Below are positions 3,271 to 5,499 of a stretch of DNA of 6,310 bases, piece after piece (position 1 is the stretch's first letter; each line of letters begins with the position of its first letter). Location of the stretch: positions 1 through 6,310 of the IMG/VR virus record IMGVR_UViG_2660238309_000007; one strand, 5' to 3'. A program made the position numbers and the translations under genes. The notes beneath the pieces are model-generated. The model did no database searches and was not told the DNA's origin. It was given only the letters and a program-made list of their open reading frames with translations. The stretch is from a virus. Lineage: Duplodnaviria; Heunggongvirae; Uroviricota; Caudoviricetes.

Positions 3271-3356
3271 TGGTAAGGGGCGACTTTCTAGAAAATATTT
3301 TACGTACGTAAAAAACGGGATATTCTGTTAAGAGTGGTTGCTTCGCCACACAGCTT
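3271..3356 (+). promoter_or_regulatory. Expected location of late promoter (pR'-like) and Q-utilisation site
   Basis: Inferred from position between the Q stop and the terminator; AT-rich stretch with weak hexamers (ttttac 3298-3303, 17-bp spacer, tattct 3321-3326). No strong consensus match. Confidence 0.3.
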
Positions 3357-3382
3357 AAACCCGCCTCCGGGCGGGTTTTTTA
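3357..3382 (+). terminator. Rho-independent terminator (tR'-like)
   Basis: Stem cccgcc (3360-3365), loop tccg, stem ggcggg (3370-3375), then T-tract tttttt (3376-3381); an upstream aaa can pair with the T-tract. Confidence 0.75.
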
Positions 3383-3431
3383 TGCCTGAAAAACGGTACA
3401 GGACGTTAAACACGCTGGTGGTCAGATGAGT

Positions 3432-3460
3432 TTGCAGATGTGATGACATATGGTTATTAT
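3432..3460 (+). promoter_or_regulatory. Candidate sigma70 promoter for the tRNA array
   Basis: ttgcag (3432-3437), 17-bp spacer, tattat (3455-3460), about 10 nt upstream of the first tRNA. Moderate hexamer quality only. Confidence 0.35.
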
Positions 3461-3469
3461 TCTGCCTCC

Positions 3470-3546
3470 GGCCCTTTAGCTCAGTTGGTCAGAGCGAGCG
3501 ACTCATAATCGCCAGGTCGCTGGTTCAAGTCCAGCAAGGGCCACCA
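3470..3546 (+). tRNA. tRNA-Ile2 (anticodon CAU, presumably lysidine-modified, reads AUA)
   Basis: Cloverleaf read by hand: acceptor ggccctt/aagggcc, D-arm gctc...gagc, anticodon loop ctCATaa (CAT at 3504-3506), T-loop ttcaagt, discriminator a, encoded CCA. C4 and C5 in the acceptor stem and close similarity to enterobacterial ileX-type tRNA favour Ile2 over Met. Confidence 0.8.
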
Positions 3547-3547
3547 A

Positions 3548-3624
3548 CCACCACTAGCTCATCCGGATAGAGCATCAACCTTCTAAGTTGACGGTGCGAG
3601 GTTCGAGTCCTCGGTGGTGGGCCA
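3548..3624 (+). tRNA. tRNA-Arg (anticodon UCU, reads AGA/AGG)
   Basis: Acceptor ccaccac/gtggtgg (7 perfect pairs), D-arm gctc/gagc, anticodon stem tcaac/gttga with loop ctTCTaa (TCT at 3582-3584), T-arm cgagg-ttcgagt-cctcg, encoded CCA. Confidence 0.85.
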
Positions 3625-3626
3625 GC

Positions 3627-3702
3627 GCCGACTTAGCTCAGCAGGCAGAGCAACTGACTTGTAATCAGTAGGTCACCAGTTCGATTCCGGTAGTCGGCAC
3701 CA
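3627..3702 (+). tRNA. tRNA-Thr (anticodon UGU, reads ACA)
   Basis: Acceptor gccgact/agtcggc, anticodon stem actga/tcagt with loop ctTGTaa (TGT at 3660-3662), T-loop ttcgatt (one A-C mismatch in the T-stem), encoded CCA. Very close, from memory, to enterobacterial thrU-type tRNA. Confidence 0.85.
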
Positions 3703-3705
3703 TAT

Positions 3706-3780
3706 GCGGGCATCGTATAATGGCTATTACCTCAGCCTTCCAAGCTGATGATGCGGGTTCGATTCCCGCTGCCCGCTCCA
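3706..3780 (+). tRNA. tRNA-Gly (anticodon UCC, reads GGA)
   Basis: Acceptor gcgggca/tgcccgc, anticodon stem tcagc/gctga with loop ctTCCaa (TCC at 3739-3741), T-loop ttcgatt, discriminator t, encoded CCA. Resembles glyT-type tRNA from memory. Confidence 0.85.
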
Positions 3781-3894
3781 TGACCTTTCTTAAAGTACTC
3801 CAACCTACTGAATCCTAAGGGATACGGCTTTAAGCCTCCTTGCAGAGTTACTTACTGTAACCCACTGTGTAACCCTCTCAGGGCATGCAGACAT

Positions 3895-5499
3895 ATGATT
3901 CAGCTATCCAGTAGTCACAAACTTCCAGCAGTCTACTATCTCTACCAGCGTAACGGCGTCTACTACTTCCGTCTTAGGGTCAGACAATCAAACAATGATA
4001 GAATGACCTCAATATCATTACGGACCAAGGATAGACGCACCGCTATGGCTTACTCAAGGCACATAAAGGCAGCACTCAAGGCAATACACGCAGACAGACC
4101 CAACGCTACCTATGAGGAAATGAGGGAACACCTTAAGGACATCGCTGAGTGTGAACTGTCTATGGGCCGTTCAGATCTCTTTGAGCCTGACATGAGGGAT
4201 ATCTACCGGGACCAATACGGAGAACTTGGTGAGAGCCTTACCGATGCTCTGGCTAGTGAGCCGCTAAGCATTGACCAGCATCGTTACATCAATGAGGCCC
4301 TGAAGGTGCTAAAAGCCTGTATGAGGCGTATCGAAGCGGGAGACAGTCAGCCTCTGATAGATTACGTCGATCTTTTTAATGATATTGATAGGCAAGATAA
4401 CCAAGCAGACTCTGTGTCCCTATCTGTTAATGCTCCAGAAGTAAAACCAGAAGTTACGCCTAGCATTACCATAGCGAGCCTCTTTGAACAATACGAAGCG
4501 GAGAACTATCAGAACTGGAAGCCTGCAACCTTAAGGGAAAACAAGGCGTCACACGCTGCGTTAATCGAAATATTCGACCATCTGGGTCTCAATGCAGACG
4601 CTAACAGGGCTGACATGCTTAGGGTCCGTGATGTGCTCCAGCAGTTACCTAGGAACCGTAAGCAGCGCTTCAAGGATGTCCCACTTGCTGACCTGTTGAG
4701 CCGTGAAGATAAGACAGATTGTCTGGATGTCGTTACCATCAACAACAAGTATCTTATTAAGATGGCTGCTGTCTTTAGGTGGGCTGTGCGCAATGACTTG
4801 ATTAAAAAGAACATGACTGAGGGTCTGGAGCTTAAAGTCCCTCAGCGTAAAGCCTCAGGGGCCCGTAACGCCTTCTCTACGGAGCAGGTGGGGCAACTAC
4901 TGGTCGCAGCTAAGGCATACTCTCAGAAGACCTCTGGTAAGCCGTATCATTATTATGTTACCGCCTTGGCTGCTATCACTGGGGCGAGACTCAATGAAAT
5001 AGCCCAACTACAGGTCAAAGACGTCAGGACCACTGAGGCGGGAACCGTTTATATTCATATCAATGAAGACGATAGTAGTCTACCCGGTAAGAGCATCAAG
5101 AACGCTCATAGTGACCGCTGTGTGCCTCTGGTCGATGGGGCCTATGGTTTTATATTGGCTGACTTTATGGCGCTTGTAGAGACCCGTAGAGGCGCTGACG
5201 GTGATGACGCTATGGTGTTCGATGGTCTGCGTCTCATGAAGAACGGTTACGGTGAGCAGGTGAGTAAATGGTTTAATCGGACGTTGTTGCCTAAAGTCCT
5301 CGTAGACCGTAGCGGCTTAGCGTTTCACTCGTTTAGACATACAGTTGCGGCCCAGTTAAAACAACATGGGGTCGAGTTGGCGTATGCACAGGCGATCATG
5401 GGGCATAGTTCAGGGTCTATTACGTACGACCGTTATGCTAAAGAGGTCGAGGTTGATAGGCTGGTCAATGTGATGGCTGATGTTTATAAGGAGACCTAG
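3895..5499 (+). CDS. Tyrosine recombinase / phage-type integrase (534 aa)
   Basis: C-terminal catalytic signature in the translation: ITGARLNEI (Arg), LAFHSFRHTVA (H-x-x-R), AIMGHSSG (His), SITYDRY (catalytic Tyr). N-terminal YYLYQRNGVYYFRLRV resembles an integrase N-terminal DNA-binding motif. Lies immediately 3' of the tRNA array. No strong Shine-Dalgarno upstream of ATG 3895. Confidence 0.88.
   Translation: MIQLSSSHKLPAVYYLYQRNGVYYFRLRVRQSNNDRMTSISLRTKDRRTAMAYSRHIKAALKAIHADRPNATYEEMREHLKDIAECELSMGRSDLFEPDMRDIYRDQYGELGESLTDALASEPLSIDQHRYINEALKVLKACMRRIEAGDSQPLIDYVDLFNDIDRQDNQADSVSLSVNAPEVKPEVTPSITIASLFEQYEAENYQNWKPATLRENKASHAALIEIFDHLGLNADANRADMLRVRDVLQQLPRNRKQRFKDVPLADLLSREDKTDCLDVVTINNKYLIKMAAVFRWAVRNDLIKKNMTEGLELKVPQRKASGARNAFSTEQVGQLLVAAKAYSQKTSGKPYHYYVTALAAITGARLNEIAQLQVKDVRTTEAGTVYIHINEDDSSLPGKSIKNAHSDRCVPLVDGAYGFILADFMALVETRRGADGDDAMVFDGLRLMKNGYGEQVSKWFNRTLLPKVLVDRSGLAFHSFRHTVAAQLKQHGVELAYAQAIMGHSSGSITYDRYAKEVEVDRLVNVMADVYKET

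Follow-up and report, generated by a model that had tools for sequence, protein, structure and literature searches.

Among the described mobile elements of bacteria, T7 islands are reportedly predicted elements of 4–13 kb that are flanked by repeats of 17–24 nt and carry an upstream integrase gene; they are said to have given rise to a satellite-phage hypothesis, and their cargo is said not to resemble structural proteins. Capsid-forming phage-inducible chromosomal islands (cf-PICIs) carry a full head and packaging module, and Ccm of SaPIbov5 is a capsid-protein homologue that redirects head size. PICMIs, the phage-inducible chromosomal minimalist islands of the Vibrionaceae, are integrase-bearing islands of ~6 kb that depend on a virulent helper, are devoid of capsid-remodelling genes (PMC10803314), and are packaged as ~8-mer concatemers of helper-genome size (PMC10803314). 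Here, we analyzed a 6,310-nucleotide stretch of viral DNA (IMG/VR record IMGVR_UViG_2660238309_000007, positions 1 to 6,310; hereafter, the window) in which the gene for a lambdoid antiterminator Q is followed on the same strand by a hairpin, four tRNA genes and a tyrosine integrase gene, an order that an original prediction had read as possible late-gene control of recombination. Our results show that positions 3781–6248 of the window form the left portion of a T7 island; such islands are small integrative elements whose insertion site is the 3′ end of a tRNA-Gly gene. The part that is present comprises, in order, attL, a tyrosine integrase gene, three T7 promoters, conserved noncoding blocks and an AT-rich heptamer array (Table 1). 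Sequence comparisons make it rather probable that the window holds a decayed T7 island in a prophage tRNA-Gly(TCC) gene and, jointly, that the family to which it belongs most likely lives as satellites of virulent T7-like phages.

Window positions 62–3780 were 99.9–100% identical to phiP27-like lambdoid prophages, and the identity ended at the last base of tRNA-Gly, position 3780. In related prophages that are free of the island, tRNA-Gly is followed by the holin, lysozyme and Rz genes. Since the identity to these prophages stops at 3780, we conclude that 3781–6248 is an insertion; the question raised with the original prediction, whether the integrase block is an insertion relative to prophages with a Q-tRNA-lysis order, is thus answered by the holin and lysis genes that the relatives carry behind tRNA-Gly. 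A related and intact island of 6,356 bp is found between the prophage-array tRNA-Gly and the holin gene of Escherichia coli EPSSH018 (locus L096). Its att sites lie at 8119–8141 and 14475–14497 of that locus: attL has the island-type core, the original 3′ end of the prophage tRNA has moved to attR, and the native downstream sequence, into the holin gene, resumes after attR. This arrangement is that of site-specific integration into a phage-borne tRNA gene. In islands of such prophage arrays (L096; L049, at ~12029), the 3′ end of tRNA-Gly(TCC) is swapped for one of the chromosomal tRNA-Gly(ccc) type, with three positions differing, and the hybrid tRNA-Gly left by such a core swap might be impaired. 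The window and L003 copies retain the prophage-type tRNA-Gly end. Neither in the window nor across ~10 kb of the sister loci L003, L010, L012 and L082 was an attR copy of the tRNA-Gly end found, the right side having been eroded by IS911 and IS1.

The exact T7 class III promoters downstream of the integrase gene (three observed, against none in 200 shuffles) span 264 bp and are identical to phi6.5, phi9, phi10, phi13, phi17 and phiOR of T7. They fire rightwards, away from the integrase gene, and the first starts 89 nt past the integrase stop codon. Neither the window nor the intact relatives contain a gene for an RNA polymerase. Throughout the family, promoter-like 23-mers for T7-group polymerases were always found on the + strand, 3′ of the integrase gene, and their type varied with the host: the Klebsiella island carries a K11-type promoter (AATTAGGGCACACTATAGGGAG) together with one T7-type site, and the Proteus, Kluyvera, Citrobacter and Enterobacter islands carry other promoter types. 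The tract at 6041–6248 has a GC content of 25.5%, compared to 27.7% after T7 phi1.1B, and contains seven + strand heptamers against a shuffle mean of 0.26 (maximum 3); the T7 left-end array has nine heptamers in 240 nt. The copy number of the heptamer array differs between islands. When the noncoding part was compared by BLAST with 50,697 phage records, only matches of promoter length were returned, and it is therefore not a piece of a T7 genome. The original prediction had ended at position 5499 and had been made without the T7 promoters, the arrays or the junction motif described below.

An integrase gene that adjoins T7-type promoters, and arrays resembling those beside the T7 terminal repeat, could also be expected of a remnant of a temperate T7-like prophage, of which the integrase end and the left-end promoters would have survived. 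Yet genes for RNA polymerase, DNA polymerase, portal, terminase and tail proteins were all missing from the 11 intact islands surveyed, att-bounded units from many genera, and DNA similarity to T7-group genomes was confined to the promoters and one 20-mer, so that we regard such an origin as very improbable.

The 20-mer lies within the integrase gene and is a copy of the T7 concatemer junction, CTCTGTGTCCCT joined to ATCTGTTA (together CTCTGTGTCCCTATCTGTTA). In its T7 counterpart, the terminal repeat, which is 160 bp long, contributes its final 12 nt and ATCTGTTA follows, and a 19-mer of the junction matches K11 170–188 at 19 of 19 positions, overlapping the 'concatemeric junction' annotated in that record. 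For T7 RNA polymerase, the heptamer ATCTGTT is a class II pause/termination signal that is strictly sequence-specific and orientation-dependent, with a natural copy at the concatemer junction. In 21 of 23 islands, the motif was found ~500 nt after the start of the integrase gene; it was exact in five of them, from four genera, and was retained where the encoded peptide shifts from SVSLSV to SATLSV. Codon usage at the motif was biased as well: the Leu codon was CTA in 16 of 18 sequences (13% of Leu codons elsewhere in the integrase genes), and the Ser codons were TCT in 17 of 17 and TCC in 15 of 17 (23% and 7%, respectively). Exact matches to the 19-mer in IMG/VR numbered 45, nearly all of them in T7-like contigs of 39–42 kb. 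Many were positioned 115–200 nt from the start of the retrieved stretch, which is where the left terminal-repeat end is expected; at least 30 of the contigs had a T7-like polymerase or terminase gene, and two matches were islands with this integrase. From this distribution, we conclude that the sequence is a hallmark of T7-like genome ends that is also maintained by the islands.

The integrase itself has a DUF6538-like N-terminus (PF20172, E 1.3e-5) and a catalytic domain matched by PF00589 over residues 329–516, with ARLNE, HSFRHT and ITYDRY motifs seen in the translation; Xer-like NCBIfam matches fell below the cut-offs. The exact protein is found in 2232 assembly blocks. Homologues 65–87% identical were recovered in 20 species representatives, from Klebsiella, Pectobacterium, Citrobacter, Enterobacter, Buttiauxella, Morganella, Proteus, Serratia, Rouxiella, Lonsdalea, Edaphovirga and others. 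ARAGORN placed a chromosomal tRNA-Gly(ccc) 110–250 nt upstream of the integrase gene in 15 of the 20 loci, and the other five had a degenerate tRNA-Gly or remnants of its 3′ end, which is consistent with second islands in tandem arrays. Intact islands measured 4.2–7.3 kb and were bounded by 17–23-nt direct repeats of the tRNA-Gly 3′ end. Of 5426 complete E. coli genomes, 381 matched the island part of the window. Three annotated examples from this species have the ordinary chromosomal genes actS and xdh as neighbors, with no Q or prophage nearby, at a tRNA-Gly locus that we take to be glyU.

The closest intact relative, 94% identical, occupies a tRNA-Gly locus in E. coli 21AR0133 (L013), where the cargo consists of Rha, a 65-aa protein, a DUF6971 protein and an HK97-fold capsid-like protein, followed by the direct repeat of the tRNA end. 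Across the relatives, the genes 3′ of the promoters code for a KilA-N, Rha or Ant-like protein, a protein of ~65 aa, a DUF6971 protein or a 163-aa alternative, and a protein of 330–400 aa. The latter gave no match in Pfam, PHROGs, NCBIfam and PDB sequence searches and is, as predicted by a fold search, an HK97-fold capsid-like protein. In minimal islands, the genes under the promoters are those of a KilA-N protein and a small hydrophobic one. When the island proteins were scanned with Pfam, PHROGs, NCBIfam and PADLOC, only the integrase, KilA-N/Rha/Ant-like domains, DUF6971 and DUF4145/PD-T7-4 were matched, and none of the core genes of PICIs, cf-PICIs, P4-like elements, PLEs and PICMIs (alpA, pri-rep, terS, sid/psu and PICMI prim, among others) was detected. 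In the window, there is no open reading frame (ORF) between the promoters and IS911 and no cargo, and in L003 and L082 only a 60-aa Rha fragment is left, cut by IS1. The window copy is thus a decayed member of the family, since it lacks the promoter-driven operon of phage-related genes. The IS911 insertion severs it from the TAGGGTCTCTC arrays and the cargo; an identical insertion with a TCT duplication is present in L003, where the island goes on beyond, and L082 is uninterrupted and without the IS.

Besides the genes under the promoters, RAZR/PD-T7-4 (DUF4145; PADLOC E 8e-99) was encoded between the integrase gene and the promoters in 12 of 26 islands (L025, 9624–10256; L096, 9876–10529; and 10 others). 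RAZR is an abortive-infection RNase activated by the portal proteins of T3 and T7; earlier work on PD-T7-4 noted that it 'often overlaps an integrase gene', and the island context was not mentioned in the RAZR literature examined. The carriage of a proven anti-T7 protein by so many members raises the possibility that the family consists of defence islands, in which phage-type promoters sense the polymerase of an invader and switch on toxic or interfering cargo, and which are never packaged. The KilA-N and small hydrophobic proteins under the promoters of minimal islands would suit such a role, and strong tandem promoters with a pause site could titrate the helper polymerase. However, RAZR is not under the promoters, as it lies upstream of them, and known satellites often carry defence genes too. 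Capsid-fold cargo, a terminal-repeat end in the integrase gene and an origin-like layout would also be left unexplained. Defence is therefore a serious rival to a satellite lifestyle, although we hold it to be unlikely.

For a satellite of T7-like phages, the following sequence of events can be proposed. During helper infection, the helper RNA polymerase would fire the island promoters, whose specificity appears to track the phages of the host (T7-type in E. coli and Shigella, K11-type in Klebsiella). The tandem promoters and the AT-rich tract mirror the T7 primary origin, and the helper replisome could thereby amplify the island. In an excised or concatemeric island, transcription from the promoters would cross the cargo and the att site into the integrase gene and would there meet the junction copy, a terminal-repeat end with ATCTGTT and possibly a signal for terminase cutting and packaging. 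In larger islands, the capsid-like protein may build or resize heads, and small islands may be packaged as concatemers, as in PICMIs. In its full form, this proposal regards the islands as true satellites built mostly of copied helper cis-signals, the promoters serving as switch and origin, the junction as packaging signal and the HK97-fold protein for capsids, with some islands riding in lambdoid prophages by way of a phage-borne tRNA-Gly. We advance it tentatively, as slightly less probable than its opposite.

Several points weigh against the satellite interpretation. A literature search on T7 satellites gave no experimental work on excision, replication or packaging. The promoters of an integrated island are directed away from its integrase gene; T7 degrades host DNA quickly; and RAZR, which many islands carry and which the portal proteins of T3 and T7 trigger, fits poorly with a helper of this kind being used productively. 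With regard to the junction copy, the P-values for codon bias are inflated because the sequences are phylogenetically related, conservation of the motif may partly reflect the peptide SVSLSV, and the motif was outside the 15 windows of lowest third-codon-position entropy in a sliding scan. About half of the islands have ATCTGTA, not ATCTGTT, and when the variant junction GTCCGTCTCCCTATCTGTA was sought in phages, both matches were islands and none was a phage. A variant promoter 20-mer occurred in three contigs of ~40 kb, once in each, with the contig ends out of view. Heptamers numbered zero in K11 181–480 versus three in the Klebsiella island. Finally, the window copy is probably immobile, as it is without attR and cargo.

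The noncoding part and its repeats vary further among the islands. The 121-bp promoter repeat is present in three copies in the window and L003, apparently in two in L006 and in one in L082 (3588–3714), although these loci are near-identical; the differences may reflect real instability or assembly collapse. A block of ~65 nt within 5875–5990 (AACCGTAACTTATCGCATCCTTTCAGGGGCGGGATGACC...), just 3′ of the promoters, shows hardly any variation among E. coli, Klebsiella and Edaphovirga and could be a leader RNA or a DNA site. After the inverted repeat, there is a variable TAGGGTCTCTC / TATAGGTCTTCTC array (L003, 13598–13830; L082, 4030–4110; L013, ~9600–9740), which resembles in style the CCTATAGGGTCC-type sequences just left of the T7 right terminal repeat. 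One E. coli island (L014, 8775–8925) has ~13 tandem copies of GATGACCATAGGC and then three of GGTCCTATGT between the integrase stop codon and the promoters; these could be iterons or protein-binding sites. In the same island (9720–9765) and in L015, a degenerate third promoter, CAATACGACTTACTAATAGGAGA, is preceded by three ATCAATACGA repeats and lies just 5′ of the KilA-N gene.

The order of Q, hairpin, four tRNAs and integrase was confirmed by PF06530, folding, ARAGORN/Rfam and PF00589. From this order, it had been proposed that Q-modified polymerase reads through tR′ and the tRNAs to express the integrase, so that recombination is coupled to late induction. All these features are on the same strand, and no terminator was found between tRNA-Gly and the integrase gene. 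Moreover, the L082 and L096 islands lie in prophage late leaders, 3′ of Q-type (DUF1133) genes, and in L096 the late transcript would have to cross the island to reach the holin gene. However, in 20 of 20 Enterobacterales loci the integrase gene and its leader stand behind a chromosomal tRNA-Gly(CCC) or its 3′ remnant, the canonical site, and the annotated E. coli examples have no Q or prophage upstream, which speaks against Q as the control input. The integrase had also been said to have no obvious strong promoter of its own; a sigma-70-like consensus match lies 3′ of the hairpin, ends 9 nt before tRNA-Met and could give Q-independent transcription of the tRNA array that reads on into the integrase. 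In loci of the S. flexneri type, there are an IS and an ORF6N gene between the Q-type gene and the array, and the join to this Q crosses an exact 368-bp repeat and is not present in the finished genomes examined. The signals of the element itself are of T7 type. Control by Q is thus quite improbable: the way the tRNA target faces dictates that the island is co-oriented with the late operon, and adjacency to Q is due to the integration site, not to a control circuit. Incidental read-through by Q-modified polymerase is possible where islands sit in prophage late leaders (L082, L096). As for the suggestion that the element responds to a helper, it does look helper-dependent, but its promoters and concatemer junction point to a virulent phage of T7 type and not to a lambdoid one.

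The junction between the Q and integrase parts calls for separate consideration. Positions 1–3780 of the window are 100.000% identical to loci L016–L018, and positions 3413–6310 are 100% identical to L003; both loci are found, in the same orientation, in one finished chromosome (CP026788), where ~690 kb separates them. Position 3412 is the last at which the two can be told apart and divergence starts at 3781, so that the window changes locus somewhere within a perfect 368-bp repeat. At least three loci with this tRNA-array repeat are present in Shigella-type chromosomes. The second locus, matched by window positions 3371–6310, lies beside a sitABCD-like transporter in IS-rich chromosomes that we take to be of Shigella type. 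The T7-island paper (Chen and Schneider 2006, PMC1380254) is cited in connection with the sit region of Shigella and E. coli, which flanks this locus. Among the matches listed, none of the ~29 complete-genome places inspected had the Q-integrase join of the window. A short-read contig that joined the two loci through the 368-bp tRNA array would account for the perfect matches of 1–3780 and 3413–6310 to separate loci of CP026788, where a third array copy is present. In agreement with such an assembly chimera, the window ends 61–62 nt into IS911 on either side, like a short-read contig with collapsed IS copies, and the integrase was on a contig of 5–10 kb in only 55 of the 2232 assembly blocks. 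On the other hand, homologous recombination or inversion between arrays could make the same junction, as Shigella-type genomes rearrange often, and the comparison with finished genomes covered 10 and 8 places among the matches listed from 28 and 33 contigs. The window may equally well be a chimeric contig or a real recombinant, the balance between the two being near even. Islands behind other Q-type genes and prophage tRNA arrays are nonetheless real, as L082 and L096 show. The L082 locus has a DUF1133-type Q gene (682–1413), a homologous hairpin, four tRNAs and an integrase 99.6% identical to that of the window, in this order and with no IS between.

As can be seen in Table 1, the genes that precede the tRNA array in the window are those of a lambdoid prophage. 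The loader-helicase region is 99.9–100% identical to prophages of E. coli and Shigella-type chromosomes, and an 85-aa ORF is present on the + strand of the prophage part. The left IS911 end cuts off the prophage upstream of the DnaC-like gene; the same junction is present in L016–L018, and the IS911 transposase is annotated at the corresponding place of H1/L002. The GTG start of an ORF at 13–960 was rejected as the true gene start, as it lies within the IS911 end, and the likely start of the loader is therefore the ATG at 82. The hairpin 3′ of Q was missed by the motif scan and confirmed by folding (−18.9 kcal/mol, z −2.9); a homologous hairpin lies 5′ of the tRNA array in L003 and L082. The four tRNAs scored 56–70 bits with RF00005, and an Rfam scan of the window gave nothing further but sub-threshold noise, with no known RNA family over 5500–6310. 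The first tRNA was called Met(cat) by ARAGORN, versus tRNA-Ile for the identical gene in RefSeq; this mismatch in naming is consistent with a tRNA-Ile2 of the lysidine type, often seen in the tRNA arrays of lambdoid phages.

Table 1. Features of the 6,310-nt window, by position.
Feature	Position	Strand	Evidence or remark
IS911 terminal 61 nt, inverted	1-61	-	perfect inverted repeat with 6249-6309
DnaC/IstB-like loader	82-960	+	PF01695, E 1.5e-15; lambdoid (phiP27-like) context, outside island
DnaB-like helicase	957-2348	+	PF03796, E 3e-72; lambdoid context, outside island
NinH	2697-2897	+	PF06322, E 3.6e-26
Antiterminator Q	2890-3270	+	PF06530, E 4.2e-54
Intrinsic-terminator-like hairpin with U-run	3357-3381	+	9-bp GC-rich stem, loop UCCG
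368-bp stretch common to helicase-Q locus and island locus	3413-3780	.	single-nucleotide polymorphism map, BLAST
Candidate sigma-70-like promoter, TTTGCA-18-TATTAT	3431-3460	+	consensus scan, 9/12 matches
tRNA Met/Ile2(cat)	3470-3546	+	ARAGORN; Rfam RF00005
tRNA-Arg(tct)	3548-3624	+	ARAGORN; Rfam RF00005
tRNA-Thr(tgt)	3627-3702	+	ARAGORN; Rfam RF00005
tRNA-Gly(tcc)	3706-3780	+	ARAGORN; Rfam RF00005
attL core, tRNA-Gly 3′ end, TTCGATTCCCGCTGCCCGCTCCA	3758-3780	+	identity break; repeats in intact relatives
Island left end and leader, TGACCTTTCTTAAAG...	3781-3894	+	alignments; kept across genera
Integrase, 534-aa tyrosine recombinase	3895-5499	+	PF00589, E 2.1e-17
T7 concatemer-junction copy	4410-4429	+	20/20 match to T7 149-168
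Three tandem 121-bp repeats, one exact T7 class III promoter each	5512-5874	+	repeat family D1
T7 class III promoters, 23 nt, TAATACGACTCACTATAGGGAGA	5588-5610, 5709-5731, 5829-5851	+	exact matches
Unique noncoding blocks, e.g. AACCGTAACTTATCGCATCCTTTCAGGGGCGGGATGACC, GGTCAGTCGATAAGTGAATAGC	5875-6040	+	alignment A1, 9 islands, 6 genera
AT-rich (A/C/T)(C/T)TAAAG heptamer array	6041-6200	+	repeat families D2, D4
Inverted repeat GGTGATGATATTTATAATAATCAATCACC	6201-6229	.	sequence inspection; kept in E. coli, Shigella-type and Klebsiella islands
IS911 terminus inserted in island	6249-6310	+	3-bp target TCT at 6246-6248

T7-like phages serve as models and are often considered for therapy against E. 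coli, Shigella and Klebsiella, and whether they have such satellites would bear on resistance to phage therapy and on gene transfer by virulent phages. Renewed interest in the class comes from a concatemer junction mimicked within coding sequence, from cargo with a capsid fold, from RAZR as a passenger and from repeated insertion in prophage tRNA arrays.

The islands share with the cis-elements of T7 itself (the phi1.1A/1.1B origin and the concatemer junction) tandem promoters, a tract of ~26% GC, a terminal-repeat end with ATCTGTT and strand-specific heptamers of the CTTAAAG/CCTAAAG type. They differ from T7 in that the full 160-bp terminal repeat is missing and in order and spacing: in the integrated map, the junction copy is found ~1.1 kb upstream of the promoters. 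Plasmids with a T7 origin and the concatemer junction/pac region are reportedly packaged by T7. With the stx-type passengers of lambdoid phages, for which Q-dependent expression of genes at this late-leader position is established, the island has in common the location 3′ of the late-leader tRNAs and before the lysis genes and the co-orientation with the late operon. Unlike these passengers, it is an autonomous element with att sites at its ends, for which the tRNA is itself the target, and it has its usual home at chromosomal tRNA-Gly(ccc), in the annotated examples far from any Q. Whereas cf-PICIs carry a whole module for heads and packaging, T7 islands have one capsid-like gene with two or three small genes, and the window copy has none of these.

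PICMIs are the working model for small T7 islands, with the difference that their function has been shown experimentally and T7 islands are known from sequence. PICMIs are set apart by integration beside fis, by AlpA and a primase, and by headful-like packaging (PMC10803314). Phage-polymerase promoters and junction mimicry are not reported for PICMIs, which have no detectable homology to the islands described here. Compared to what is said of T7 islands, the family presented here has a large cargo protein with an HK97 capsid fold, a junction copy in the integrase gene and RAZR, and the window copy is truncated. The class of T7 islands (Chen and Schneider 2006) shares with our locus the tandem T7-group promoters without a polymerase gene, the upstream tyrosine integrase on the same strand and an enterobacterial host, and with its intact relatives also short end repeats and a length of a few kb. 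The copy in the window is a relic whose link to this particular Q may be artefactual, and the Q-tRNA-integrase order is explained by the integration site of a known, if obscure, class of elements.

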